Of a DNA stretch of 64,000 bases, positions 25,801-64,000 are shown piece by piece. The number at the start of each line of letters is the position of its first letter. Within the stretch, counting starts at the first letter, position 1. The position numbers and the translations under genes are program-made. The notes beneath the pieces were generated by a model that was given only the letters and a program-made list of their open reading frames with translations, was not told where the DNA came from and ran no database searches. The DNA is from a virus (lineage: Duplodnaviria; Caudoviricetes): positions 1 to 64,000 of the IMG/VR virus record IMGVR_UViG_3300037477_000009. One strand, 5' to 3'.

Positions 25801-28800
25801 GGTTTCAACCATTCATCACCTGCCATTGGTGCAGATTCTTTTTCGGTTTCGGTTTCAGGCTTTTGCCATTTTTCCCTAATCTCTTTCTCTGCTTCTTCAA
25901 TAGTCATCTTTCCAGAAGGATCGGTATCCGCATATGTTTCTGCTTCCGCTAATGCTTCTTTTAATGTTGGCTTCTGTAATATCTCGCTGCGAATTTGTGC
26001 AGGTGAAATCTCTTTTACTTTGCCAGATTCAGATTCTTTTTCAGTCTCCTTATCTTTTTCCTTTTGTGGCTCAGGTTTTTTTTCAGTTTCCTTCTCAGTT
26101 TCTTTTTCTGTTTCAGGTGCTTTCTCCTTCTCGGTTTCTTTCTCAGACTCCTTTTCTTTTTCAGTTTCTGTTGCAGGTGCTGGCTTTTCAACAATTGGAT
26201 TTGGTACTTCCATCTCCACTTCTCTTTCTACTTCATCATACACTTCATTGAATGCACCATCAGCAATTTCACCCATTGCATCAACGTGCATCTTTATCGC
26301 CAGGTCAAGTGCTAACTCAGGATTTTCTATAGTGATCAGCTTACCATCTCTTGTTTGTACAGTAACAGATTTCACATTTCCATTTTCATCCAGTGTAACA
26401 GGACTCTCATCGCCATCAGGTAATTTCAGATCACGATCATTGATCGCCTTCTCACCAACAGCAGCAACTTTATTTCCCTTGCCATCAATAACAAAGTAAT
26501 GGCCATCCTCAACCTTCAGGACTCCTGTTGCTTTTGTTCCATTGGGGAGAGTGACTGTGACTCTTGATCCTGTTGCTTGTTGGAGCGCAGGTTCGACTTT
26601 GATCTTAGTTTTGTTAGTACGGCCAGTTGGTACTTTTTCGGTAACCTTGCCAGTTTTAGTTGTTGTCGTAAATTCATAATTCTGTATTTTTTCTATTAGC
26701 GGTTCTATCAAGTGTGCCGCATTTGGATTTTTTTCTAACGCATCGTACAGTTCATTCTCTGCTGCTTTTAACTCATGCTCGTTTATATATTCAGCATTGT
26801 TCACTCTGTCAACCACACCTTGTGTTGTATCGCTGACCTTGTGAGTAGGATCATACCATACCTGCCCTACTTTTGTTTTCGCACCAGGTGCTGTTGCCTG
26901 TTGTGCAGGTGCTGCTTGCGTTTTAGGTGCAGGATATTTTGAATTAATCTCATTCCACTTTTCCAACTTCGCTTCGCTATTTGCCAGTGCTTGCTTCGCC
27001 ATTTCGTTACCAGGATCATGCAGCAAGGTTTCCTTCGCAAACTTTACATTGTTCTCAAAGAATTTTTTTGGATTGGCAAGAAACTCTTGCGCCTGTTTGA
27101 CCTTCCACTTGGAATCGCTATTCAAATCTTCATAATAACTATCAAAGTCAAACGCATCTTGCAGTTCTTTATCTCTTTTAGCTGCAAGCATCTCAGGTGT
27201 AACACCCTGTTCTTTTTCATCTTTGTTCGGTATTGGCATTGGTAAACGAGTGATCACTTCAGAACCTTTTTCTCTTGCTGCCTTTCTTGCTGCCCTTGCT
27301 TCCTTCAATTCTTTATCGGTCTGCTCAAGTATTTCCTGAGACTTCCCTCTCTTACCGAATGTGTGTAATTGAAAATTTCCTTTCTTATACTCATCAAGGA
27401 ACTTCGGATTCTGCAATGCTGCTTCTGATTCACTCACTGATAAAACATATTGTTCGCCACTCGGATAAGTAAGAACAACATAATCACCTTTACCTTCTTT
27501 AACGAACTTCACCATGTTGTCACCGATCTCTTTCGCTTTTTCTTCTGCTGCTTGTTTTAATCCAGGATCAGTTTGTGCTGCTGCCTGGCGAAGTGCATCT
27601 TGTTTTTGGAATGCCATTGAAGCATAGACTTTTTGCTGACCAGGTGTAAGTCCATATTTTTTCCCATTGGTTATTAATTGCTCTGAATGCTTCAGTGTGG
27701 CGGCCATTGATTCTGCTTCCTCCTGATTGATCACGCCACCACCAAACAGATGTGCAACGTATGCCTCTGCAAATGATTTTCCTCTGCGCTGCATGATGTC
27801 GAATACGAATTGATCTCTCTGACCAGGCGCAACATTTTTGAAATCATTCTTCAGCATAAATGTTTTCACCTGCTTCTCAGTTTCCGCTTCCTCTCTCATG
27901 TGAGTCATCAAGTGACCACCACTTCCCATTAAAAACATTGGTGCAATATTCATCAGTGTGTGTTCTGCCCGATCCCAAGTCATAAGTTTGTAACCTTCCT
28001 GATATGGCTGGTCATTTCTTATTGCTTGTTCAAATACATCCTGATGAAACTCTTGCGGAAACTCACCGACTAGTTCTTCTATACCACCCCAAAACAATCT
28101 CTTTCCAAGTGATCCGGTAGTTAATCTGGCTGCTCTTGCTGATATATTTGCAATCTGTTCTGCTTTTAAAAATGGTGCGCCTTCAAGCATATATGCCCAC
28201 ATCAAATTAACCTGGCTATCGAATGTTCGCTTACCTGCTCTGTTTGCTTTTAATGCATCACCGCCACTCTCAGCGAAAATATCATCACGCATTCTTACTG
28301 CCATGTCACCTGTCTCCACCATCCATGCTGTAAGACCACCAGCTACTGCTGTCAACGCTGCTGGCGCACCCATACCACCAGTAGCGAATGTTACTGCTGC
28401 CGTTGCTGCCATACTTGGTAGCATAAAGCCTGCGATATTACCTGTTGCCTTTGCGAGTTTATTCAGATCAAGATAATCTCTCCAGGAATTCAATTCAGTC
28501 CTACCAGTCTGAATTGAATTCGCAAAATAATCTGCTGCCACTACACCAGTATCAAAATTTAAATTTGATGACCATGATCTTACAACACCAGCCATTGACT
28601 TGGCTGTTTGCCTGAATAAGTTTAGTGAAGGATTATAGGCAACACTATCCAATGCGTCTCTGAAATCCTTACCACCTGTATCAACATCTTTTAATGCCTG
28701 GCCATACACCTTCTGTATTTTTGCTTGCAGTTCAGGACTCGGCTGGAACTTATATTTTTTTTGCGCCTCTGCTAATTCTGCCCTTCCCACCTTTTCGATC

Positions 28801-52506: not shown

Positions 52507-53049
52507 TTACACTGGTTGTTTGAACACTGCACCAGCAAGCCATGCTGACCATGCAATGCCATCGCCACTATCAATCGTATCTGCCTTGTAACTATCACCA
52601 GCTTTCTGTGCAGTCAGATGAGCGACACGCACATCCCATGTGCCATCAGGTATCTCACCATTGCATTGCTTACCATTGTTGATGAAGCGAGTGATCAATG
52701 GCACTCTGCTAAACTGCTTGATCTCTACACCACCACTTGGCTCAGTCTGGCCACCACCAGTCCACTGTACCACTGTGATCACAACAATCCGGTCATCTGT
52801 TGCATCATCTGGAGTTAATGCACCAAGATCATCTGGAGTTGGTAATGTCCACTCAAGTTCATTCTCTGCTGGATGAGTTACCACTGGCGCAGCAATGAGC
52901 AATGCACCGACTGATGCACCACTCTTGGTTGATTTTTTACTCTTTGGTTTGCTTGCTTCTGCCACTGGTATACCACTGACGTTAGACAAGTCTTTTGCAT
53001 AGTCCTCAACATTTTCTTTTGCCATTAGTTTGTGTTTTTTCATTGACAA
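52507..53049 (-). CDS. Hypothetical protein (beta-rich C-terminal domain)
   Basis: 180-aa ORF with a low-complexity K/S linker. Confidence 0.6.
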   Translation of the reverse strand: MSMKKHKLMAKENVEDYAKDLSNVSGIPVAEASKPKSKKSTKSGASVGALLIAAPVVTHPAENELEWTLPTPDDLGALTPDDATDDRIVVITVVQWTGGGQTEPSGGVEIKQFSRVPLITRFINNGKQCNGEIPDGTWDVRVAHLTAQKAGDSYKADTIDSGDGIAWSAWLAGAVFKQPV

Positions 53050-53160
53050 ATCAATTTACAAATTACGATCCAATATTGTTTGCACTGGTTATGCACAATG
53101 CAACCAGTGTTCATTTTTCTTTTGCACAGGATATAAACAATATCCATTGTAAATTTGATC

Positions 53161-53589
53161 ATGTACATACCAGTGCAAGACTTCAGATATCTTAAACGAT
53201 TTTGTTACTTCGATACTACACTGGAGAAGTATAATCGCAAAGCCATGATGCGTCTCAATCGCACTCAGGTATTACTGCTGTATACACTCTATGATCTCAC
53301 TCGTAAGAAACCAACAGCAACAGCACCTTTCATTGGTAAATACTTTCTTGTATCAAAGAGCAAACGCAGTGCAAGATTTCATACAGTCAAACAATTGCAC
53401 ATACTGGAAGTAGCAGAACTTGTGTTGCATATCACTGATAAAAATGGATTCTATCATTGGTCATTAACACTGCTTGGTCACAATACACTCAAAGCAATTG
53501 AACGCATGATTCGCAAACAAGAAAATGTTTCAAAGATCAGTTCTCGATCCTCTGTCTTAACTCAATTATTCTCCTCTCAAAACAAGTGA
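53161..53589 (+). CDS. Winged-helix DNA-binding protein (putative regulator)
   Basis: LNRTQVLLLYTL...LHILEVAELV...WSLTLLG pattern; palindrome at 53129-53145 just upstream. Confidence 0.55.
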   Translation: MYIPVQDFRYLKRFCYFDTTLEKYNRKAMMRLNRTQVLLLYTLYDLTRKKPTATAPFIGKYFLVSKSKRSARFHTVKQLHILEVAELVLHITDKNGFYHWSLTLLGHNTLKAIERMIRKQENVSKISSRSSVLTQLFSSQNK

Positions 53590-53941
53590 TAATACCTGGC
53601 TTTGTGTGTATTTGATTGTGACATTGCCAACACAGTATTGCGATGTTATCTGGATCATATCTTAGCAATGGAAATTTTGATTTCTCCAATAGATGATGGA
53701 AGTTGAATAACTGTGGCTCATGGATAATATTCTCACATCCTACTGCCTGACATTTGTTGCTCGTTCTATTGAGCCAGACATCCATGTAAAAATCAATATC
53801 ATCTTGCTTCCTCTCACGAAACATATGTTGCTTCACTCTTACAGATGCTGATGTTGCACATCGTTTGCATCTCCCATGAGAGAAGATCAGTCTCATCTTG
53901 TGACATTCAATGCACTCTTTTGGTTTCTGTCTGATAGCCAT
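53537..53941 (-). CDS. HNH endonuclease with N-terminal Zn finger
   Basis: CIEC...CKRC; FHHLLEKS...YDPDNIAILCWQCHNQIH. Confidence 0.8.
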   Translation of the reverse strand: MAIRQKPKECIECHKMRLIFSHGRCKRCATSASVRVKQHMFRERKQDDIDFYMDVWLNRTSNKCQAVGCENIIHEPQLFNFHHLLEKSKFPLLRYDPDNIAILCWQCHNQIHTKPGIITCFERRIIELRQRIEN

Positions 53942-54160
53942 TTTACCAATGAGAATTGATTGTTATAGCAAGATATAATTTATATCCATTCATTGATCAA
54001 AACGTGAGGTCGATAGTTTTTTCCATAGAATTATGTGGATAACTTTTTGGATCTTTTTTTTGCTACGTTAAAGAATTGGATATCAAATATATCTGAGGCA
54101 TACAGTCCACAGTAAAAACTTACACTGGCGGTTGATGCTATGTGGTATACAGTCCACAGC

Positions 54161-54168
54161 TATCTTTG
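54161..54168 (+). promoter_or_regulatory. Bacteroidota sigma-A -7 box for the rightward operon
   Basis: TATCTTTG; no clear -33 box, but 13-bp direct repeats lie upstream. Confidence 0.55.
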
Positions 54169-54532
54169 TGGGAGTTCTTTGATAGGCCAGTTGGAAGCCA
54201 GATACCACGACAAAACGGTCAAACTCGCTCTGAGACTACGTTTCAGACGATCCTCACTCCGAAAATTGTCAGGTAGATCACACTTGATCACTGGTTGTAC
54301 AACGGAAACAGCGCAAGACAGACTTGAAGAATACTCTAACGGAGATTCGCACAGACAGCAGCCACCACGTTTCATTTCTCATAGGAGAAAGTAAGCAAAC
54401 GGATTCTGCAAAGACTAAATGTTCACGATGTAATATCGTTCACTGTGTACGAAAATTTTTCACTGACACTGCGCCCTTCATTCACCAGCTTTCGATTTAT
54501 CACTGCTGTGTGTGGTCTTGAGGCCAGATGAT

Positions 54533-54586
54533 TGTATCGTACAATGGTAATCGCCATTGCTGATGAGACTATACAAGTCGAAACGG
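54533..54586 (+). ncRNA. Type III hammerhead ribozyme
   Basis: GUA site at 54539-54541; stem I CAAUGG/CCAUUG; CUGAUGA at 54560-54566; stem II GACU/AGUC; GAAAC at 54580-54584; stem III CGU/ACG. Confidence 0.85.
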
Positions 54587-54608
54587 AAAAAAAATAAACT
54601 ATACAGAT

Positions 54609-55601
54609 ATGTCAATGGAATTAATCAACATCGCAATTGCAAATGATGCAGATTTTTGGGTGAGTATGTCAGGTGGAAAAGATAGTGAAGCAACAGCACT
54701 CACACTGAGAGCAAATAACATCAGGATCGCTGGTGGAGTTCATGCTGATCTCGGTAGACTGGAGCATAAAGAATCAGGTGATCAATGTCAGCAGTTAGCT
54801 GCTGAGTTAGGCATTCCACTGGTAGTAGTGAGAAGAACAGATGGTGCAGATATGTTAACTCACTGGAGAAACAGAATGCTGAAGTTGAAATCACAGGGTA
54901 AGATCAACGTAGGTGGTAAGACTACCCCATTCTGGAGTTCATCTGGCGCACGTTATTGCACCAGTGATATGAAGCGTGAGCCGATCAACAAACACTTCCG
55001 TAGTGTAAAAAATAATCTCATCGTTTCGTGTGAGGGTATCAGAGCGGATGAAGGGGATGCGAGAAAATTCAAATCACCAATAGCAGTTAGATGGGCAATC
55101 ACATCTGAGTATTACATGAAGTTCGCTGGAGTTGCAGTAAGAGTGAAGCAGATAAAAAAATTGAATGATTCAGCAAAAGCAATGAAGTCATCCAATCCAC
55201 TCAAAGCAAAAAAATATAGCCAGATCGCAGTGTTGGAAAGAGAAGTGCTGGAGATTGTTCTACCAGTATACAATCCAAAAAAGCGTTTGGCTATTACATG
55301 GTTTCCAATTTTCAATTTCACTACTGATGAAGTGTGGGCAACAAGAGGACACACCAGTGCAGATTTGCAAGCAGCAAGAATTGAATTCAAGCAGACTGGT
55401 AAAGCAAATGACTGGAGATTTCATCCAGCATATGCGAAGGGAAACAACAGGGTATCATGTGTGTTCTGTGTGATGGGTTGCAGTAATGATCTCGCAGTAG
55501 GCGCAAAACATTATCCTGAGTTACTCAAGGAAATGATTGCACTGGAGAAAGAAGGTAACGCAACATTCAAGGATGGTGAATCACTGGAGAGATATTTATA
55601 A
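54609..55601 (+). CDS. PAPS-reductase-family (PP-loop) protein
   Basis: SMSGGKDS, CTSDMKREPI, EGIRADE, RVSCVFC. Confidence 0.85.
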   Translation: MSMELINIAIANDADFWVSMSGGKDSEATALTLRANNIRIAGGVHADLGRLEHKESGDQCQQLAAELGIPLVVVRRTDGADMLTHWRNRMLKLKSQGKINVGGKTTPFWSSSGARYCTSDMKREPINKHFRSVKNNLIVSCEGIRADEGDARKFKSPIAVRWAITSEYYMKFAGVAVRVKQIKKLNDSAKAMKSSNPLKAKKYSQIAVLEREVLEIVLPVYNPKKRLAITWFPIFNFTTDEVWATRGHTSADLQAARIEFKQTGKANDWRFHPAYAKGNNRVSCVFCVMGCSNDLAVGAKHYPELLKEMIALEKEGNATFKDGESLERYL

Positions 55602-55608
55602 GTTCAAT

Positions 55609-55652
55609 GGGTAGCAGTGTATGCTGTGAGATTCAAATCTAACTACCCACTA
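55609..55652 (+). ncRNA. tRNA-like element E1
   Basis: GGGTAG-[CAGT gtat GCTG]-TG-[AGA ttcaaa TCT]-AA-CTACCC-ACTA. Confidence 0.75.
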
Positions 55653-55680
55653 ATATTTAATCAACAAAAAAAACAGACAA

Positions 55681-56160
55681 ATGAACACAAAAATTGAATG
55701 CCCAAAATGTGGCCGCACAAATTGTACAACAATTGATAACGAGCCATTGAGCCATGACAAAGAGTGGTTAACCAAAAATGGTATGCAGTTCGATAACCAG
55801 TTGTATGTATTCTTCCGGTGCAATGACTGCGACAATAGGTTTCGTGGTACACTGGAGATAATCACACAGAGTGAACACAAGGCACTCACTGGTCTACAGA
55901 GCAAGTTTCCAAATGGCTTTGCTTCATGGATAGAAACGCATCACGAAGTTGTGGCCATTATAACCAACGAACTTAGAAAAAATGAAAGAGAAGGATCGGT
56001 TATCTGGAAGAGACAAATCGAACAAGGCACTGGTGGTATGTTTGAGTTAGCAGAAGAGTGGACAGATGAATTTGAAAAGAAGAACATAGATAGAGAATGG
56101 GATGGTGAATTCTTTGAAGAGGTTGAAGATTTCTGTATCGCAAAAGACAAAGCAAATTAA
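55681..56160 (+). CDS. Hypothetical protein with N-terminal Zn ribbon
   Basis: CPKC...CNDC. Confidence 0.7.
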   Translation: MNTKIECPKCGRTNCTTIDNEPLSHDKEWLTKNGMQFDNQLYVFFRCNDCDNRFRGTLEIITQSEHKALTGLQSKFPNGFASWIETHHEVVAIITNELRKNEREGSVIWKRQIEQGTGGMFELAEEWTDEFEKKNIDREWDGEFFEEVEDFCIAKDKAN

Positions 56161-56167
56161 TCACACT

Positions 56168-56213
56168 GGCTGCATCGCTATAGGCACACCATCGAATGGT
56201 AATGCAGCCACTA
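56168..56213 (+). ncRNA. tRNA-like element E2
   Basis: GGCTGCAT...[ACCA tcgaa TGGT]-A-ATGCAGCC-ACTA. Confidence 0.7.
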
Positions 56214-56243
56214 ACAAATTTCAAAAACAAAAAAGCAAACACA

Positions 56244-56483
56244 ATGAAAAGTTTAATCGCAATCGCAGCAGTAATCATGTTATCATCATTCACCAATGGT
56301 GATCATTGCAAGGGTAAAAAGAAAGATGGCACACCATGTCAATCTACAATCGTAAGCAAAGCCACTGGCTATTGCAATGCACACAATCCAAACGCAAAGA
56401 AGTGTGTGTTCATCAAGAAAGATGGAGAGCGTTGTAAGATGACTGTAAAGGCCACAGAGACACTTTGCAGATTCCACAAGTAA
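56244..56483 (+). CDS. Signal-peptide protein with two C-C-C-H Zn-finger-like repeats
   Basis: MKSLIAIAAVIMLSSFT; CKGKKKDGTPC...C..H and CVFIKKDGERC...C..H. Confidence 0.7.
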   Translation: MKSLIAIAAVIMLSSFTNGDHCKGKKKDGTPCQSTIVSKATGYCNAHNPNAKKCVFIKKDGERCKMTVKATETLCRFHK

Positions 56484-56490
56484 ATGGTAA

Positions 56491-56555
56491 GGGTAGCAGA
56501 ATAGGATCGCCAGTGCGATCTTATTGCTGTGAGATTCGATTCTAACTACCCACTA
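56491..56555 (+). ncRNA. tRNA-like element E3 (long P2)
   Basis: GGGTAG-[CAG AATAGGATCGC cagt GCGATCTTATT g CTG]-TG-[AGA ttcgat TCT]-AA-CTACCC-ACTA. Confidence 0.8.
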
Positions 56556-56585
56556 ACAATTATTCAATCTTAAAATTTAATCGAC

Positions 56586-57323
56586 ATGACAACAGATCAG
56601 TTATTGCAAGCAGCATTTTATGCACTCAATGAAATTCCAAACAAAGAGATCAGTGGTGAATTCAAAAACAGTTATGCACTGGCAGCAGCACTTGGTAATC
56701 ATCTTAGGAAAGAAGATGATGCATCGTATCTCCTGACGTTCACATTGCGTACCACATACAAGGATGGAGTGAAGGACAATGATTACACTGAAATATTCTG
56801 TGATGAATCAGAAGGTCGCACACCAAAGCAACAGGCACATGAAAGGATGGAAATGTTACGCAGCCAGTATGATTCCATGTATAGCAAGACAGAGATGTAC
56901 ACTTGGAACATCGCTAAGATCACAAGCACCAGCGAACATTACAACTTAGGTAATGAGCCAGCACCAGTGCAACCAGCAGATGATCTCGTTACACTGGAGA
57001 GAGGCGCAGAGATAAAGCAAGAGCAACCATCACTTACGTTTGAAGTAAGATCATCACATGGCACACTCACTGCTGCTAAATCAAATGGTGCAGTTGTGAA
57101 TTGTGTGCTGAATGATAACGAAGATGAAGATGGACACTCACTACTTGATATCACCAAGTTCGATGTGAAAGAGTTTCGCACCTATCATAACATCGGCATC
57201 GATGCAATGCCTGATAGTATCGACATACTCGATCTTGGTTACTGGTATGATAACGGAATTGGATTATACGAATCACCGGATGGTGACTGGAGAGAGATGA
57301 TGATCAACATCGCAGATGACTAA
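56586..57323 (+). CDS. Hypothetical protein (245 aa)
   Basis: ORF between E3 and E4. Confidence 0.7.
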   Translation: MTTDQLLQAAFYALNEIPNKEISGEFKNSYALAAALGNHLRKEDDASYLLTFTLRTTYKDGVKDNDYTEIFCDESEGRTPKQQAHERMEMLRSQYDSMYSKTEMYTWNIAKITSTSEHYNLGNEPAPVQPADDLVTLERGAEIKQEQPSLTFEVRSSHGTLTAAKSNGAVVNCVLNDNEDEDGHSLLDITKFDVKEFRTYHNIGIDAMPDSIDILDLGYWYDNGIGLYESPDGDWREMMINIADD

Positions 57324-57332
57324 ATGATCTCA

Positions 57333-57379
57333 GGGTAGCAGAACGAAAGTTGCTGTGGATCGAATCCAACTACCCACTA
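57333..57379 (+). ncRNA. tRNA-like element E4
   Basis: GGGTAG-[CAG AAC gaaa GTT g CTG]-[TGGA tcgaa TCCA]-A-CTACCC-ACTA. Confidence 0.8.
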
Positions 57380-57408
57380 AATATTTAATCAACAAAAACA
57401 AACGACAA

Positions 57409-57948
57409 ATGACAGTTAATCCAAGTCTCACTCCAGAGACTTTAAAAGCAACAGATGAAATGATAGATGCAGCCAATGCGCTGATCTTAGCAACAGCCTA
57501 TGCCAGTGTAGTAACTCCAGTGGTAGAAAAAATCCACCAAGATGTGCTAAACGAAAATCGTTATGCATGGGATATGAAAATTGTATTCTGTGGCCGTAGA
57601 TCGGAGAGTGACAAAGTAAACTTCCTGAAAGAGAATGGTGAGTATTGCAGCAAGCCATCACTTGTCCAACTTACAGGCAGCAAGAACTTCAATGACTACT
57701 TCGTTCAGGTAGCAAAAAAACTTGCACTGGCTGGCTTTGAAGTGAATGATGATGTATGCCCAATGCTGGAAGCAATAGATTTAGAATGGAAGGCGAAGAA
57801 GGTGCTTATCGATACCATGCAACCAACTACTGGTTTCAAGTACGATGACTTCTTCAAGACAACGAAGTGGAAAGAACATATCGAGAGGTATGTTGATCTA
57901 CTCTTGAGGTGGCTTGCACCACATCTCAGGAACACACTGGTAAAATAA
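57409..57948 (+). CDS. Hypothetical protein
   Basis: Start reassigned to the ATG at 57409. Confidence 0.7.
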   Translation: MTVNPSLTPETLKATDEMIDAANALILATAYASVVTPVVEKIHQDVLNENRYAWDMKIVFCGRRSESDKVNFLKENGEYCSKPSLVQLTGSKNFNDYFVQVAKKLALAGFEVNDDVCPMLEAIDLEWKAKKVLIDTMQPTTGFKYDDFFKTTKWKEHIERYVDLLLRWLAPHLRNTLVK

Positions 57949-57975
57949 TTTAATCAATCTTAAAATTTAATCGAC

Positions 57976-58278
57976 ATGAACAAAGTAGCATTTAAAGAAA
58001 CAGACATTTTTTGGCAACCGGAAATCACCGAAGATGGTGATGGGGTAATCGGCCATGAAGATGAAGAGTATTTATTTTCATTTGAAGTATGGAGTACGTT
58101 AAGAAATCTTTTAAAGGATTATCCTAACTGTGAACCAGTGGAACACGAAAGAAGTGAGTTTGATATAGAGTATCCAAATTTTGTAGATGAGGTCGCATTC
58201 AATTCGCCTCCAGACAGATCAACAGAAGATGAGTTGATCATCTTGGAGTTGTTATGGAAGTGCGAGATGGAATCATAA
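57976..58278 (+). CDS. Acidic hypothetical protein
   Basis: Shares the TTAAAATTTAATCGAC-ATG leader with 56586 and 58365. Confidence 0.65.
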   Translation: MNKVAFKETDIFWQPEITEDGDGVIGHEDEEYLFSFEVWSTLRNLLKDYPNCEPVEHERSEFDIEYPNFVDEVAFNSPPDRSTEDELIILELLWKCEMES

Positions 58279-58285
58279 GATCACT

Positions 58286-58334
58286 GGACTGGCTGGTTAA
58301 TTCGCAGTAGCATTTCAATTGCACCAGTCCACTA
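58286..58334 (+). ncRNA. tRNA-like element E5
   Basis: GGACTGG-[CTG gttaattcg CAG]-TA-[GCA tttcaat TGC]-A-CCAGTCC-ACTA. Confidence 0.8.
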
Positions 58335-58364
58335 AACAATTCAATCATTTAAAATTTAATCGAC

Positions 58365-58733
58365 ATGACAACAAAGCAGACAATCGACATCACCCCAAGA
58401 TGGGCAGAGTTATTACCAGCAATGCTTCAATTGCACAGGCAGTACAATAAGAAGCGTAAGCCTACACTGGAAGATGCAAAGTGGTATGAAACATTGCTTG
58501 CAGAATTCAAGACGATGGCATTCGCTGCTGACAAGTGGAATGCACATGAGAAACTCAACACTGGTGAGGTAAAGACAGATCATTACAACACACTGGTGAA
58601 GATCACTGGTGGTAGTTATGATAGCATCGGCAGATACTTCTATGCGCACATCGACCAATTGAATCGTGCATGGATCAACATACCAGCAGGAGTGTATGAT
58701 GCAAACAAATTTGAGATCGTAGCAGGTCAATAA
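58365..58733 (+). CDS. Hypothetical protein
   Basis: ORF between E5 and E6. Confidence 0.7.
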   Translation: MTTKQTIDITPRWAELLPAMLQLHRQYNKKRKPTLEDAKWYETLLAEFKTMAFAADKWNAHEKLNTGEVKTDHYNTLVKITGGSYDSIGRYFYAHIDQLNRAWINIPAGVYDANKFEIVAGQ

Positions 58734-58742
58734 GATCACACT

Positions 58743-58791
58743 GGACTGTTCAGGTTAACTCGCTGTGGCACTCGATGCAAGCAGTCCACGA
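58743..58791 (+). ncRNA. tRNA-like element E6
   Basis: GGACTGTT-[CAG gttaactcg CTG]-TG-[GCA ctcga TGC]-A-AGCAGTCC-ACGA. Confidence 0.8.
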
Positions 58792-58820
58792 AATATTTAA
58801 TCACAAAAATTAAATGACAA

Positions 58821-59549
58821 ATGCCGACACAAAAAGAAATGGAAACTTATCCAGACACTTGCGATAAGTTAATCGTATCGCTTTACGATTCATCAGAAGC
58901 ATGGCCACAGCCATATGCTGATGCAGGGTATCCTGTAATGTTTTGGGATATGAATCACGAAGGTGATATCATTCACCACTGGTCAACATTCATGGACAAC
59001 ATTGAAGAAGCAATCGAAGAAGGTTATTATCCGTATGGCCTACTGGCAGCACCACCATGCGATCATTTCGCTTCCAGTGGTGCAAGGTGGTGGAAAGAGA
59101 AAGATGCCAGTACAGAGCGTGTAGGCCACAAGGACATTGCCGAAAACAATGTTGACTTGGGAGTGCTGCTTGCTGAGATACCGATGCTGATATTGGATCA
59201 GGTAGAACAACACTTCGGTTATGAATTCAAGTGGTGGGCATTAGAGAATCCTGTTGGCCGTATTGAGAAAATGTGTCCAGACTTAAAGCCATACAGAAAG
59301 ATGATGTTCGATCCATGTGACTATGGCGATCCATATACCAAGAAAACTATTCTATGGGGAACATTCAATCCCGATCTTCCCAAGACACCAGTAGAGCCAG
59401 AGTACGTTACCTATGTGAAGAAGGATGGATCGCTCACAAGGTTTGCACCACAGTTTGGTCGCACTGGTGGTAAGTCTGCAAAGACAAAAGCGATCAGGAG
59501 TAAAACACCAAGCGGATTTGCCAAAGCGTTTTTCCAAGCAAATCAATAG
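58821..59549 (+). CDS. C5-cytosine DNA methyltransferase-like protein (short form)
   Basis: AAPPCDHF (motif IV), ALENPVG (motif VI), YTKKT (motif VIII-like); motif I degenerate (SLYDSS). Confidence 0.75.
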   Translation: MPTQKEMETYPDTCDKLIVSLYDSSEAWPQPYADAGYPVMFWDMNHEGDIIHHWSTFMDNIEEAIEEGYYPYGLLAAPPCDHFASSGARWWKEKDASTERVGHKDIAENNVDLGVLLAEIPMLILDQVEQHFGYEFKWWALENPVGRIEKMCPDLKPYRKMMFDPCDYGDPYTKKTILWGTFNPDLPKTPVEPEYVTYVKKDGSLTRFAPQFGRTGGKSAKTKAIRSKTPSGFAKAFFQANQ

Positions 59550-59566
59550 GCCAGGTAGATGATGAT

Positions 59567-59609
59567 GGACTGCGATCAGGTCGTGGAGTTCAAACTCGAC
59601 AGTCCACTA
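59567..59609 (+). ncRNA. tRNA-like element E7
   Basis: GGACTG-[CGAT cag GTCG]-TG-[GAG ttcaaa CTC]-GA-CAGTCC-ACTA. Confidence 0.8.
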
Positions 59610-59636
59610 AATATTTAATCAACAAACGACAAGACA

Positions 59637-60506
59637 ATGGACTTAACTATTTTTTCATTTGGCGCAGGGCAAGAATCAACTTACCTGTTGCATAAGCTGG
59701 TCAGCGATCCAGCGTTCAGAGCCAAGCACATCAAAGGCCACTTGCTGGTTGTAGGATCAGACACTGGCGATGAGCATCCGCATACTTATCAGAATGTGGA
59801 GAAGCTAAAGTTGTTCTGCAAGTACAACGATGTTGAATTCTATTGGGTAACTCCTGACATGGGATATCACACGAACACATGGCAGAGTCTCACTGGTCAG
59901 TACAAACGCAACAGTTCAATTGGCTCTGCTGCATTCAAACAGACTTGCACTGATAACCTGAAGGTGAAAGTGGTTGACAACTTTGTTGAAGGCTGGTTGA
60001 AGAAACAACTTGGCAAGCCTGATGCAAAGCGTAAGACGATCTTCAAAGGGATCACTGACATCAGGCTCATACTTGGATTTGCGAAAGGTGAGGAATCAAG
60101 GACAACCAGTGGCAACAAATTTGATGCAGTGTGGAAGAAGAAGTCAATGGTGCGTTACTTCCCACTCATTGAAGATGGGATCACTCGTCAGGATTGTATT
60201 GACTACAATACGATCAACATCCCATACACTGTGTGGCCATCCAATTGTATGCGCTGTTTCTATCAGGCAGATCAGGAAGTGTTGTGGTTGCACAGAAACT
60301 TTCCTGAGAAGTTCCTTGAGTGGTACACGATGGAGCAAGCGAAGCTGACCAAGTACGCTGGTGCTGATAAGAACTATGGAGTGTATGGCAAGGTCTTACT
60401 GATGCAGAAGCTGGAGAAGGCCACTGATCTGTATGGTCACTGGAGTGATGAGCAACTTGATGAATACAAGTTCTCACATGGCCACTGTATAAAGTCAAAA
60501 TATTGA
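59637..60506 (+). CDS. Second PAPS-reductase-like (adenine-nucleotide alpha hydrolase) protein
   Basis: SFGAGQES variant PP-loop, SDTGDEHPHTY, CTDNLK, PSNCMRCFY. Confidence 0.75.
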   Translation: MDLTIFSFGAGQESTYLLHKLVSDPAFRAKHIKGHLLVVGSDTGDEHPHTYQNVEKLKLFCKYNDVEFYWVTPDMGYHTNTWQSLTGQYKRNSSIGSAAFKQTCTDNLKVKVVDNFVEGWLKKQLGKPDAKRKTIFKGITDIRLILGFAKGEESRTTSGNKFDAVWKKKSMVRYFPLIEDGITRQDCIDYNTINIPYTVWPSNCMRCFYQADQEVLWLHRNFPEKFLEWYTMEQAKLTKYAGADKNYGVYGKVLLMQKLEKATDLYGHWSDEQLDEYKFSHGHCIKSKY

Positions 60507-60529
60507 TCACTATAAAAACTAAAAGACAA

Positions 60530-60814
60530 ATGACAAAGCGAATTCCCATCCCAAGAGTTGATCTTAAAAGAAAGCTGGTCTGCGTATACTCTACGCAGCT
60601 TTCCATGTTTGAGGTTTGCCAGATGACAAACAAAGGCACAGTCTCAAAGATGTTCAAGCCACAGGTTGCATTCACTGATGACGTACACAAAGCCTTCAAG
60701 CGATTCACTGTGCCATTCGCACGTTTCAGAATCGTGGCTGGAGTGAAGCGTGATCAGTGTAAGACATGGAATGAATGGATCGAAAGAGTATGGCAAAAAG
60801 CAAATCAGAAATAG
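60530..60814 (+). CDS. Hypothetical protein
   Basis: Start reassigned to MTKRIP. Confidence 0.6.
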   Translation: MTKRIPIPRVDLKRKLVCVYSTQLSMFEVCQMTNKGTVSKMFKPQVAFTDDVHKAFKRFTVPFARFRIVAGVKRDQCKTWNEWIERVWQKANQK

Positions 60815-60840
60815 TATTTTTAAATTTTAAAACTATACAA

Positions 60841-61113
60841 ATGGCAGCGAAACATTATCAGCTTCTTTCACTTCCACAGATCACTTCAGCTAATATCGAT
60901 AAGAGGGTTGCAGACAAGCAAGAAGAAATCAGGTTGAAGTTACCGGACATCTTCACCCATTTACCATACGCTGAAGAAGTAGGCAAGGATTTGCTTTACT
61001 TAGTGGCATTAGAAAATGCAAGGACACTAATGAACACAATTGATTACAGAAATTATGAGAAGGCAGGTAAGCCAGTGGATTACGAAACCTGGCTACAACA
61101 GAATGCTGAATGA
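60841..61113 (+). CDS. Hypothetical protein
   Basis: AAACTATAC-AA-ATG start at 60841. Confidence 0.65.
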   Translation: MAAKHYQLLSLPQITSANIDKRVADKQEEIRLKLPDIFTHLPYAEEVGKDLLYLVALENARTLMNTIDYRNYEKAGKPVDYETWLQQNAE

Positions 61114-61122
61114 TCACAGGAG

Positions 61123-61169
61123 TGGCTGCGAATTAACTTGTCGTGGGTTTCGATACCGACAGCCGTCTA
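61123..61169 (+). ncRNA. tRNA-like element E8
   Basis: TGGCTG-[CGA attaacttg TCG]-TG-[GGT ttcgat ACC]-GA-CAGCCG-TCTA. Confidence 0.75.
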
Positions 61170-61200
61170 AATATTTAATCACAAAAAAACAAATGACAAA

Positions 61201-61425
61201 ATGGAAAAAGAAAAGAAAGTCTCAGTAGGGCAACAGTTGGTTATTAACCACACTGACAAAGCGATCCTTGCGTATGAAGCATGGAGAAGAGCCACACAGA
61301 TAGAGTGGTCGCATAAGTACCAGTGCTATAAAAGATTTTTCGGTAAAGCGTTTACCAAAAATCCAAAGACACCACAACAATTGTATAACATCTACAAAAA
61401 AGAAAGCAATGGCAAAATCAGTTAA
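61201..61425 (+). CDS. Hypothetical protein
   Basis: ORF after E8. Confidence 0.6.
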   Translation: MEKEKKVSVGQQLVINHTDKAILAYEAWRRATQIEWSHKYQCYKRFFGKAFTKNPKTPQQLYNIYKKESNGKIS

Positions 61426-61708
61426 AGGTCTTGAGGACTATGGAATAAAAAATCTTGAAGATTTTCTTGACAGGCTGGAGTTATTTATGTTTCATGGCGG
61501 CACTGATATCTTAAACGCTATGAGTAAAACGCACCTAACAGAATATATGTGCAGGAAGTATTTGAATGAAGCTGTTGAAAAAGGATTCTATAAAAAGTCA
61601 TGGCTGCGTGGTGATGCAAATAAAAAGAACACTCCAATGTCAATGCGGTATCTACACAAATATTATTACACTAAAATTAAAGACCATGCAACCGATCAGG
61701 GAACTTAA
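61409..61708 (+). CDS. Hypothetical protein (possible wHTH)
   Basis: Coupled ORF. Confidence 0.55.
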   Translation: MAKSVKGLEDYGIKNLEDFLDRLELFMFHGGTDILNAMSKTHLTEYMCRKYLNEAVEKGFYKKSWLRGDANKKNTPMSMRYLHKYYYTKIKDHATDQGT

Positions 61709-61952
61709 TGAAAGAGAAAACATCGTTCTTGAATACTGTCAGGAACACGCACAGGATATCATCTGGATATACAAGGTTGTTGAGTATGCAACCGAGCAAG
61801 GGATCGCATTAAAAGAAAGCAAGGCTGGTGCGATCCTGTTGCAGTTCTCCAGATGTGGATGGCTTAACAGGTTACCACGATCATCCAGAGGATGGGGATT
61901 AGGATGGGATGTGCAAGCGTACACTGTCAAGCCTATTGTAATTCCGAAATGA
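61686..61952 (+). CDS. Hypothetical protein (possible wHTH)
   Basis: Start reassigned to MQPIRE. Confidence 0.55.
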   Translation: MQPIRELNERENIVLEYCQEHAQDIIWIYKVVEYATEQGIALKESKAGAILLQFSRCGWLNRLPRSSRGWGLGWDVQAYTVKPIVIPK

Positions 61953-61958
61953 TTCACA

Positions 61959-62004
61959 GGACTGGTTGCTTCAGGCAAGGCATCGAATGCCAGCCAGTCC
62001 ACTA
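61959..62004 (+). ncRNA. tRNA-like element E9
   Basis: GGACTGGT-[TGC ttcag GCA]-A-[GGCA tcgaa TGCC]-A-GCCAGTCC-ACTA. Confidence 0.8.
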
Positions 62005-62032
62005 ATATTTAATCACAAAAACTAAAAGACAA

Positions 62033-62548
62033 ATGAACAAAGAAACAAGGGATCGAGTTGCTAAACTGCAAAGCGATCTCAATGTAGCGCACAGGAATCT
62101 TGGTAACCTTCAAGAAGAACTCTTCCTTATCATAGAGGTAGAACGGGAAGCGGAAGCTAGTGACCAAATTTTTGAGATACTACAAAGCGCATCAAAATTA
62201 GTTATGAACGCTGGCACTGACCTTGAGGTATCGGTCAGTGTTCTTGGTGGCATCGTTAATCACCAAGAGCAACCGAAAGTTCTCAAGACATCGTTCAACG
62301 ATCAAGAGAAGAAGGAATTGCATGGAGGCTTTCATGGTAATATTCGTTTTGATTTACTCAACGACCAAAACGAAAGAGTGCTATCATGTTACAGAGCAAC
62401 GATACCAGGTGGCCTTGATTTTATGAATGCGAAGATGGAAGAACACAAAAGCACATGGTTTACTGTTCATATAATGAAAAAGACTGGCGGTAAGTTCAGG
62501 TCTGTTGCTCATTTAGAAACAGAAGCAGGTACAATATTCCAACATTAA
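62033..62548 (+). CDS. Hypothetical protein, coiled-coil N-terminus
   Basis: ORF after E9. Confidence 0.65.
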   Translation: MNKETRDRVAKLQSDLNVAHRNLGNLQEELFLIIEVEREAEASDQIFEILQSASKLVMNAGTDLEVSVSVLGGIVNHQEQPKVLKTSFNDQEKKELHGGFHGNIRFDLLNDQNERVLSCYRATIPGGLDFMNAKMEEHKSTWFTVHIMKKTGGKFRSVAHLETEAGTIFQH

Positions 62549-62559
62549 AAAAACATACA

Positions 62560-62907
62560 ATGAAAAAAGAATTCAAGTATGAGGCCATCATGTATTTCAC
62601 TGGCAAGCGGAAGTCCTTCACTGATTATATCGACATCTTTGCAGCCAATGATTCAGTAGCACTCGCAACGGCTACTGAATACCTGTTAGAGACAGAAGGT
62701 GCAAGTGCTATTCACTTCCGTAAGGTCGGCAACAAGAAATGGAGAGCCGTTAACCAAAGTGAAGTGATGTCGCATGACTTCAGAGACATGAAGTATTACA
62801 TCGATTACGTTACCGAATGCATCGAAAACAGGAGAAAGCCAATGACGTTTGAGAAGTACAATGGATTACTCGATGGTGAGAATTGCATAATGGGTACTAT
62901 CATGTAA
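62560..62907 (+). CDS. Hypothetical protein
   Basis: A-rich start context. Confidence 0.6.
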   Translation: MKKEFKYEAIMYFTGKRKSFTDYIDIFAANDSVALATATEYLLETEGASAIHFRKVGNKKWRAVNQSEVMSHDFRDMKYYIDYVTECIENRRKPMTFEKYNGLLDGENCIMGTIM

Positions 62908-62915
62908 CCGGAAGT

Positions 62916-62953
62916 GAAGTGGTGCGCTGAGTTCGATTCTCAGCCACTTCCCA
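62916..62953 (+). ncRNA. tRNA minihelix E10
   Basis: GAAGTGG-tgcg-CTGAG-TTCGATT-CTCAG-CCACTTC-CCA. Confidence 0.7.
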
Positions 62954-62976
62954 AGAATTCTATATCTTAGTGACTA

Positions 62977-63885
62977 ATGAGATCGAAGTCACTTAACCTA
63001 CCAAAGCGAATTGCAATCGCAAGAAAATTCCTTAAAGGATCGTCAGTCAGAGAACTTGCAAAAGAATACAGCCTGGCTGAACAAACCATTGCTGGCTACT
63101 TGCGCAATCACATTGATAAAAACGGAAGAGTGATCTCTGCGCCACCAGCGATGTCGAAGGAATTGCAGCTACCAGGTGAAAAGTGGAAGGTAGTACCAGT
63201 GCCATCCAAGAACAAGATAGAAGCCAGTAATCTTGGCCGTATCAAGAGCCACGCATATGGTAGGGAGAGGATACTTGATGGCAATATAAAGTTCGGTTAC
63301 AGATCGATCTGCTACCGAGTAAAGAATAATAAACGAAGAGATGAACTAAGCCATATGCTTGTTGCAAAAGCCTGGCTTGAGCCAAGACCATCAACAAGGC
63401 ACGTTATCGTTCATCTGGATCACAACAGGTGGGATAACAGTCCAGCGAATCTGAAGTGGATGATCAAGCGTGATGCACAACGTCACGCACGACATTCGCC
63501 TTACATGGAGATACTACGCAAACGTGCAAGAGCGATGCCTACCGAACAGGCGAACAAAGCCAGGTATGGTAAGCTGTCTCGTAAGGAGGTCATCAGCATC
63601 AAGCAGAAGATACACAATGGCAGAAGGATAATTGATATCGCAAAGGAATACGGGATCGCAGAGATGACTGTATCACGCATTCATCGGGGTATCATATGGG
63701 CAGATGTTCTTCCGCAATTAACCAGGAAGAAAAAGGAGTTGAAAATAGTGCCAGTGGAAACAAGGATCAAGATCATCAATGCACTTCGTGCTGGTATGCA
63801 GGGAAAGGTAGCTGCTGCACTGTATGGCTTCGATCCTACCACCATCTCCCGTATTAAAAAATCGTTACAACATGGAAACGATTAA
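62977..63885 (+). CDS. NUMOD4-HNH homing-endonuclease-like protein with HTH repeats
   Basis: EKWKVVP...EASNLGRIKS (NUMOD4); HMLVAKAW...HLDHNRWDNSPANLKW (HNH); three helix-turn-helix-like segments. Confidence 0.85.
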   Translation: MRSKSLNLPKRIAIARKFLKGSSVRELAKEYSLAEQTIAGYLRNHIDKNGRVISAPPAMSKELQLPGEKWKVVPVPSKNKIEASNLGRIKSHAYGRERILDGNIKFGYRSICYRVKNNKRRDELSHMLVAKAWLEPRPSTRHVIVHLDHNRWDNSPANLKWMIKRDAQRHARHSPYMEILRKRARAMPTEQANKARYGKLSRKEVISIKQKIHNGRRIIDIAKEYGIAEMTVSRIHRGIIWADVLPQLTRKKKELKIVPVETRIKIINALRAGMQGKVAAALYGFDPTTISRIKKSLQHGND

Positions 63886-64000
63886 GCTGCCAGAATTCAT
63901 CAGTACCTTTGTTGCTGGCAGACAACTATTGATACGCACCACCAATCCGCATTTAATCGGTGAGGTGGTGCAGTATCAAAGCACAGATCAGATGTTACAG
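63872..64000 (+). CDS. Hypothetical protein, partial (runs off the right edge)
   Basis: METIKLPEFISTF..., open to the end of the window. Confidence 0.5.
   Translation, partial: METIKLPEFISTFVAGRQLLIRTTNPHLIGEVVQYQSTDQMLQ

Follow-up and report, generated by a model that had tools for sequence, protein, structure and literature searches.

How might a long phage message carrying a row of small genes be divided into single-gene pieces? This question is raised by nine short repeated structures, E1 to E9, that occupy gene junctions on the plus strand of IMG/VR record IMGVR_UViG_3300037477_000009, a 75,513-bp genome of an uncultured soil phage that is rated complete and of which the first 64 kb form the window. 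The initial annotation had read E1 to E9 as tRNA-like three-way junctions punctuating an operon. Comparison of the nine copies with one another and with copies in other phages confirms that they are a conserved, covarying structured RNA. We consider that they are probably part of an RNA cleavage or processing module that splits a long phage message into single-gene pieces; the more specific proposal, that each mimics the top half of a tRNA and is cut by host RNase Z and/or RNase P, is a serious candidate that we put forward tentatively.

All nine elements were recovered at the starts originally assigned to them, both on re-reading the sequence and in a parse by coordinates. They are listed below with the closing stem (P1), the two hairpins (P2 and P3), the P3 loop, the tail following P1 and the score under covariance model R1.

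55609 to 55653, plus strand: E1, between a PAPS-reductase-like gene and a 159-amino-acid (aa) Zn-ribbon gene; P1 GGGTAG/CTACCC, P2 CAG/CTG, P3 AGA/TCT, loop TTCAAA, tail ACTAA; 55.4 bits.
56168 to 56214, plus strand: E2, preceding a small zinc-finger gene; 8-bp P1 GGCTGCAT/ATGCAGCC, weak 2-bp P2, P3 CCA/TGG, loop TCGAA, tail ACTAA; 32.4 bits.
56491 to 56556, plus strand: E3, following the small zinc-finger gene; P1 and P3 as in E1, long P2, loop TTCGAT, tail ACTAA; 56.2 bits.
57333 to 57380, plus strand: E4; P1 GGGTAG/CTACCC, P2 with a GAAA loop, P3 GGA/TCC, loop TCGAA, tail ACTAA; 47.5 bits.
58286 to 58335, plus strand: E5; P1 GGACTGG/CCAGTCC, P2 CTG/CAG with loop GTTAATTCG, P3 GCA/TGC, loop TTTCAAT, tail ACTAA; 54.8 bits.
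58743 to 58792, plus strand: E6; P1 GGACTG/CAGTCC, P2 CAG/CTG, P3 GCA/TGC, loop CTCGA, tail ACGAA; 49.8 bits.
59567 to 59610, plus strand: E7, between genes for a 242-aa and a 289-aa protein; P1 GGACTG/CAGTCC, P2 CGA/TCG, P3 GAG/CTC, loop TTCAAA, tail ACTAA; 44.9 bits.
61123 to 61170, plus strand: E8; P1 (T)GGCTG/CAGCC(G), P2 CGA/TCG, P3 GGT/ACC, loop TTCGAT, tail TCTAA; 57.9 bits.
61959 to 62005, plus strand: E9; P1 GGACTGG/CCAGTCC, P2 TTGC/GCAA, P3 GCA/TGC, loop TCGAA, tail ACTAA; 36.6 bits.

The nine copies lie within 6.4 kb, one per gene junction and all on the gene strand, each starting 5–15 nt past a stop codon and followed by an A-rich leader. With the copies found in other phages included, the element is gene-oriented, with a spacer of 5–17 nt after the stop and 11–35 nt before the next ATG. 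The parse from coordinates alone accommodates every copy, with a P1 of 6–8 bp, a P2 of 2–4 bp (plus an 11-bp extension in E3), a P3 of 3 bp and unpaired core junction strands of 0, 1–3 and 1–3 nt. It bears out the absence of an anticodon arm and the P1 length given by the initial annotation, which had allowed P3 3–4 bp; P3 is 3 bp in all nine. Minimum-free-energy folding gives the three-way junction in seven copies, and E2 and E8 alone fold otherwise. The P3 loop contains TCRA (R, purine) without exception, in the forms TTCAAA, TTCGAT, TCGAA, TTTCAAT or CTCGA, and seven tails read ACTAA, the exceptions being ACGAA (E6) and TCTAA (E8). By reading of the sequence, the leader after E1 serves as an example of the unstructured A-rich stretches that follow.

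55654 to 55680, plus strand: leader after E1, (A)TATTTAATCA, an A-run, then GACAAATG.

Comparable leaders at 57949–57975 and 60507–60529 come without an element. The 10-nt block TATTTAATCA stands behind six of the nine copies and is not kept in the other phages, in which NCTAA (N, any base) is kept.

That sequence varies while pairing is kept, as first claimed, is borne out by 112 of 112 canonical core pairs across five variants of P1, five of P2 and six of P3. Arms swapped between copies form a full helix in only 14% (P3) and 25% (P1) of cases. An alignment of 11 sequences has 92.8% of its cells paired versus 71% in shuffles, a value reached by none of 500 shuffles, and slid controls give 29–42%. 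With 16 sequences from six sources the corresponding figures are 93.9% and 63.3%, again reached by 0 of 500; here 11 of 12 pairs are changed on both sides, the covariation score is 0.745 versus 0.212, and RNAalifold recovers the same three helices. Model R1 scores the nine copies at 32–58 bits (E 1e-6 to 1e-13) and finds nothing beyond them below E = 2 over the whole 75.5-kb genome. The positions kept across phages can be written P2-UG-[3 bp]-UUCGAU-[3 bp]-RA-P1-NCUAA. The argument from G-U pairs for a plus-strand RNA is true only weakly, there being one such pair among the 112 core pairs, at the outer end of E8 P1, and one in the P2 extension of E3 (a helix of 14 pairs with one bulged G). Because the core holds a single G-U pair, pairing alone barely separates the strands, and the strand assignment rests instead on orientation and context.

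Further copies are present at gene junctions of six other contigs, L272, L291, L292/L293, L302, L344 and L372 (these labels, together with L078, L290, L294 and L297, denote the uncultured phage contigs compared here). The relatives were reached through two operon proteins. One, of 245 aa, has a partial homologue beside a homologue of the small zinc-finger protein on JGI contig L272. On this contig a pair of elements scoring 44 and 38 bits, and the beginning of another where the contig ends, show new variants of P1 and P3. When the zinc-finger protein itself was used in a profile search, it brought in L291, whose two elements score 43 and 28 bits, along with L290, L294, L297 and L292/L293. No element is found in L290, L294 or L297, the gene junctions of which hold type I hammerhead ribozymes, with an A-rich leader between ribozyme and next ATG, in the following arrays at consecutive gene junctions.

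L294:743-4800: array of type I hammerheads.
L297:386-1240: array of type I hammerheads.
L290:627-1750: array of type I hammerheads.

Six of these hammerheads pass a strict descriptor and the others were read by eye; Rfam missed most, one matching the RAGATH-1-hammerhead family below threshold. They have an invariant open stem, GGTTAA/TTAACC, from which it follows that every downstream RNA would start UUAACCAAAA, and this invariance suggests that the 5' end sequence itself matters.

Genes common to the window operon and the sister operons, as confirmed by tblastn, allow individual junctions to be compared. The junction after the shared zinc-finger gene is occupied by an element in the window (E3), L272, L291 and L292 and by a type I hammerhead in L290, L294 and L297; at that between the 159-aa and zinc-finger genes, E2 in the window corresponds to a hammerhead in L290. 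A single operon of L292, which belongs to a 42-kb contig and in which the hammerhead core was also found, combines two hammerheads, two variant elements (P1 CCCTTTG/CAAAGGG) and one true tRNA.

L292:3185-3255: true tRNA (Rfam, 46 bits; no encoded CCA), 3 nt after one open reading frame and 8 nt before the next.

In L078 the homologous 242-aa/289-aa genes (70% and 61% identity) leave no spacer and share a 4-nt overlap, at the place where this phage has E7. Since the L078 gene pair lacks a spacer, the module belongs to neither gene and is an addition at the junction, and since orthologous junctions hold an element, a hammerhead, a tRNA or nothing, it is an exchangeable one. The same exchange bears out the idea, put forward in the initial annotation, that the elements do for genes 2 to 10 what a hammerhead does for the first gene of the operon: hammerheads or a tRNA at orthologous junctions lend it strong comparative support.

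The element is much rarer than the hammerhead, as few hammerhead loci match it: this hammerhead type occurs in at least 120 IMG/VR contigs, and among 96 hammerhead-bearing loci scanned only L302, L372 and L344 (two copies) match the element, in each case at gene junctions and co-oriented with the hammerhead. Model R2, run over 0.9 Mb of hammerhead-bearing loci, added a single copy and missed the L292 variants. Exact 16–17-nt words spanning tail and leader gave single chance matches only in IMG/VR, JGI metagenomes and GTDB genomes, five of them from one conserved Aquirufa locus, and a structure-shaped pattern with a GGGTWG stem (W, A or T) likewise gave chance matches only. Relatives of the large terminase (TerL) are ~33% identical, and five of their records are without the element; a portal search of 401 Bacteroidota genomes found no prophage relative. 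The relatives of the 242-aa and 289-aa proteins belong to unrelated phages with densely packed genes and no elements. Scanning IMG/VR with protein patterns derived from the zinc-finger and 245-aa alignments gave no match, and no protein is exclusive to element-bearing contigs among the short contigs compared. The array in this phage is the largest seen.

Several similarities in detail were observed among copies. The 9-nt P2 loop GTTAATTCG is identical in E5 (58301–58309) and L291:1122-1130 (element L291:1113-1160), and it contains GGTTAA, a word of hammerhead stem I; the P2 loops of E6 and E8, GTTAACTCG and ATTAACTTG, are close variants of it. Pairing of the P2 loop with leader or tail was considered and dropped, as it fits only E5, E6 and E8. 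The P3 hairpin of E8 is the same as that in L272:198-247. The word CAGTCCAC occurs eight times on the plus strand and not at all on the minus strand, four of these occurrences being the 3' arm and tail of E5, E6, E7 and E9.

Exchange with hammerheads and with a tRNA makes the element, most simply, another RNA cutting signal. A tRNA within a transcript is excised by RNase P and RNase Z. The cutting, the enzyme and the site that we infer are as follows. E1 to E9 would be transcribed within one long plus-strand message, in which P1 would mimic an acceptor stem, P3 with a U-A and purine-purine extension and its UCRA loop would mimic a T arm, and P2 would stand in place of the D and anticodon arms. 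The most likely cut would be of the RNase Z type, just before CUAA, possibly accompanied by RNase P cleavage at the first base of P1. One mRNA per gene would result, the upstream mRNA ending in a folded, tRNA-like 3' end, possibly CCA-tagged, and the downstream mRNA opening on an A-rich leader that is short and unstructured. In the sister phages, type I hammerheads would yield the same outcome, with downstream RNA starting UUAACCAAAA. Both products would then begin Y-U-A-A (Y, pyrimidine; UUAACC after the hammerhead, CUAA after the element), which would fit a cut before CUAA. Hammerheads that flank prophage genes in clusters were shown to cleave in vitro, with a proposed role in cutting polycistrons (PMC3088659), and plant mitochondrial t-elements provide a precedent for tRNA-like signals at mRNA ends (PMC1920247).

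How closely the element resembles a tRNA can be judged from its parts. P1 is 6–8 bp, or up to 9 bp with a flanking U-A pair; a single-stranded tail follows P1 in all nine copies (NCUAA; ACGAA in E6) and in those elsewhere; and a T-loop-like UUCGAU or UUCAAA loop caps the arm adjoining the 3' strand. The base after P1 is mostly A and the base at −1 is U in six of the nine copies. Beyond the 3 Watson-Crick pairs of P3, the U of the strand between P2 and P3 (J2/3) and the A of that between P3 and P1 (J3/1), together with a G.A or G.G pair, could add layers, giving 5 in most copies and, with P1, a possible stack of 11–12 layers. The ~12-bp acceptor/T stack of the initial annotation would need this non-canonical extension to run on unbroken into the 3' strand of P1; otherwise 1–3 unpaired bases intervene. 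The T-loop it described as TTCRA or TCGAA stands as to TCRA, found in 9 of 9; the UUCRA form is restricted to E1, E3, E5, E7, E8 and most copies elsewhere, and five copies have TCGAA. Its tRNA-like ACTA tail is seen as ACTAA in seven of nine, but ACTAA-like words occur also in element-free leaders, and its usual GG start for P1 is not kept in other phages, where P1 starts ACC or CCC.

A number of observations weigh against the tRNA comparison. Without the non-canonical extension there are 1–3 free bases between P3 and the 3' strand of P1, and P1 continues directly into P2; because of these two features, usual junction rules would stack P1 on P2, not on P3. The P3 loop is 5–6 nt in most copies (5–7 overall) and not a constant 7. 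The TCGAA loop of five copies (E2, E4, E9, L291:1734-1778 and L292:6686-6738) is the reverse complement of TTCGA, and such UCGAA copies are odd for a strict T-loop. The tail is CUAA and not CCA, ACUAA-like words are not confined to elements, and the GG start is not conserved across phages. Neither tRNA models nor ARAGORN give the elements any score: ARAGORN reports no tRNA genes in the window, and the RF00005 tRNA model has no match to them even at E = 10, whether over 11 kb or in slices of 76–81 nt. As a separate observation, the constant part of the P3 loops is the palindrome TCGA (TCAA in E1, E5 and E7).

A full T-arm feature, with 5 bp, a 7-nt loop and continuity with the acceptor 3' strand, is found only in a further structure detected by a descriptor scan and folding at the next gene junction but one after E9, before an HNH/helix-turn-helix (HTH) gene.

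62916 to 62950 (region 62910 to 62951), plus strand: E10, tRNA top-half minihelix.

In E10 an acceptor-like stem of 7 bp is joined through a 4-nt linker to a T stem of 5 bp, which is capped by loop TTCGATT and leads directly into the 3' strand. There is no D or anticodon arm, and neither R1, ARAGORN nor the Rfam tRNA model matches the structure. E10 may serve as a processing signal, or it may be a tRNA gene with an internal deletion; its distance of 11 kb from the integrase makes an identity as attP, the phage attachment site, improbable. The lack of an encoded CCA in the L292 tRNA fits RNase Z-type maturation.

What else could such an element be? It could be a new class of small self-cleaving ribozyme, interchangeable with hammerheads, in which the three-way junction and its conserved UG, UUCGAU, RA and NCUAA would direct a self-cut, for example at J3/1 or before CUAA. 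The same junctions are occupied by hammerheads in sister operons and both occur together in single contigs, and twister-sister, pistol and hatchet were all found near known ribozymes and associated genes, regions that are ribozyme-enriched (PMC5737381), a precedent that counts against a tRNA mimic. About a dozen unpaired positions (UG, UUCGAU, RA and NCUAA) are kept across phages, a number close to that of the highly conserved nucleotides in pistol, which has 10 (PMC4604425). We nevertheless regard self-cleavage as unlikely. The junction strands are just 0–3 nt, no conserved tertiary pairing of tail or loops was found by reading, and the hammerhead core (C3-U4-G5-A6-N7-G8-A9 and G12-A13-A14) is missing from E1 to E9, which match no hammerhead family. 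No other Rfam ribozyme family (twister, twister-sister, pistol, hatchet, HDV-like, hairpin, RAGATH) matches an element, even at E = 10 over 53000–64000 and a slice containing E1. Conserved motifs from similar hunts (DUF3800-I, FuFi-1, skipping-rope) failed to self-cleave when tested (PMC5737381), and E10 and the L292 tRNA show that tRNA shapes are used in these slots. An uncut element is, in our estimate, improbable to a like degree. It would act as a 3' stabiliser or insulator or as the binding site of a phage or host protein, such as a T-arm-binding enzyme or a translational regulator, shielding each cistron or setting its translation, perhaps with host RNase E, G or Y cutting the adjoining AU-rich leader. 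A stable fold straight after each stop codon, followed by AU-rich single-stranded RNA, would suit this role, as the conserved loop and tail would suit protein recognition, and structures that stabilise a 3' end have precedents in the RNase III sites of T7 and the REP hairpins of bacteria. The swapping with self-cleaving hammerheads and with a tRNA speaks instead for a cut at the element itself; moreover a plain hairpin would suffice, yet the three-way junction and loop are kept across distant phages, and the contig comparison above revealed no protein partner exclusive to element-bearing contigs.

Less probable than either is a signal at the level of transcription or DNA, be it a terminator-plus-promoter cassette as in T4 PeSL, a hairpin promoter for an N4-like virion RNA polymerase or, as in integron attC, a recombination site in single-stranded DNA. 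With almost every pair of the Watson-Crick type, the fold could form on either strand or in DNA, and the block TATTTAATCA recurs behind six copies; this block is not kept in other phages while the fold is. The cassette was rejected for want of any signal above shuffles: no terminator-like or sigma-70-like site coincides with an element, intrinsic terminators number 6 in 9 kb versus 5.7 expected, and the tails read ACUAAAUAUUUAAUC with no U-tract. In favour of such a signal, the virion module is crAss-like, including a muzzle protein, and no early promoter motif is reported in the paper on the crAss-like phage phi14:2. Promoters of the N4 or crAss type were rejected, as the DFDxD polymerase motif is absent from all six frames of the genome and a 4422-aa giant protein matches neither the N4 or phi14:2 polymerase structures nor a Pfam polymerase family. 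Integron attC was rejected because, in our reading of the parse, its R' and R'' words are missing. Hammerheads, which occupy the same slots, act only as RNA, and element orientation always follows the genes. Nothing supports the remaining alternative of the initial annotation, that the elements are decoys. Cutting by host tRNA enzymes is the reading that we prefer for the module, at the tentative strength given above.

The operon itself begins near 54.17 kb on the plus strand with a leader of ~430 nt, preceded by a Bacteroidota-type −7 box, TATCTTTG (TAnnTTTG-type, read by eye). Its leader is closed by the ribozyme listed first below; the other features listed are those that place the genome.

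54534 to 54589, plus strand: type III hammerhead-like ribozyme; the operon's first gene (ATG at 54609) begins 20 nt downstream.
16893 to 30161, minus strand: crAss-like virion module with the 4422-aa giant protein.
73640 to 74887 of the genome: Bacteroidota-type tyrosine integrase.

The hammerhead scores 30.2 bits (E 0.0035) against Rfam RF00008, below the gathering score of 48.5; its core is complete (CUGAUGAG and CGAAAC) and its stem III is weak. At the same place, the head of the L291 operon has a type III hammerhead core, CTGATGA...GAAAC (about L291:480-530). The virion module encodes the portal, the large terminase and a homologue of the muzzle protein in addition to the giant protein, and a primase is also encoded on the minus strand. 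The virion module, the giant protein lacking the DFDxD motif and the integrase together suggest that the phage is temperate and crAss-like, with no obvious RNA polymerase in its virion. No motif of such a polymerase was found; 'early' as a label for the operon is an assumption. Operon genes are small and accessory, including two PP-loop/PAPS-reductase-like proteins, zinc-ribbon proteins and the HNH/HTH protein. The 242-aa and PP-loop-like 289-aa proteins (window 58821–60506; L078:431-2001) form a conserved pair in many unrelated phages, often beside N6/N4 methyltransferases, and are probably a DNA-modification or anti-restriction pair. At the operon start, 54098–54163, two copies of the direct repeat (T)ATACAGTCCACAG lie 47 nt apart, adjoining a GGATATC-N3-type palindrome and the TATCTTTG box. 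The phage is present in two soil sequencing runs, X1 and X2, and a search for RNA runs containing the stretch found none; contigs of run X2 represent a strain 0–10% diverged from this phage.

The initial annotation knew of no described family matching the elements, and this agrees with our searches: Rfam gives no family match to them at gathering score over the window, ARAGORN is negative and literature searches returned no description of the motif. Four kinds of known system can be set beside it. Acceptor/T-arm minihelices and the tRNA-like domain of transfer-messenger RNA (tmRNA) are minimal substrates of RNase P and the CCA enzyme; the closing stem of ~7 bp stacked on a T arm and the single-stranded 3' tail are similar, and E10 fits closely, whereas E1 to E9 have CUAA for CCA, a shorter T stem and an added P2, and no tmRNA model in Rfam matches. 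Repeated intergenic modules that separate phage genes are also found as the RNase III sites of the T7 early operon, long imperfect duplexes that yield stable single-gene mRNAs, as T4 PeSL, a hairpin paired with a sigma-70 promoter, and as the sequence repeats SAS/ESAS of Cluster K mycobacteriophages. To our knowledge, no such module combines a three-way junction and a T-loop-like arm, or is known to exchange places with ribozymes. Where hammerheads are clustered in polycistrons of phages and prophages (Perreault et al. 2011, PMC3088659), each junction likewise carries a small structured RNA, on the strand of the genes, and a short leader remains for the next gene; E1 to E9 differ in lacking the CUGAUGA and GAAA core, and their self-cleavage would be hypothetical. 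Mitochondrial tRNA punctuation and the plant t-elements (PMC1920247) are alike in that non-decoding tRNA-like folds in long transcripts define mRNA ends through RNase P and RNase Z, the recognised part being an acceptor-like stem with a T-arm-like hairpin. E1 to E9 differ in lying in a bacteriophage operon and in their far smaller fold (40–50 nt), with a T stem of 3 bp plus a non-canonical extension, a loop of 5–6 nt and an additional hairpin into which the 5' strand leads directly.

RNA punctuation of phage and organelle polycistrons is already known; the uncatalogued three-way-junction module is what is new here. Hammerhead-cut phage operons were proposed in 2011, and this phage has the densest array found of a second module, placed by natural swap experiments in the same gene junctions as hammerheads and a real tRNA. 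If the module cuts itself, it would be a new ribozyme class. If host tRNA enzymes cut it, it would be a bacterial-virus counterpart of mitochondrial tRNA punctuation and a compact (~45 nt) natural operon-splitting part for Bacteroidota, which lack Shine-Dalgarno-led translation.

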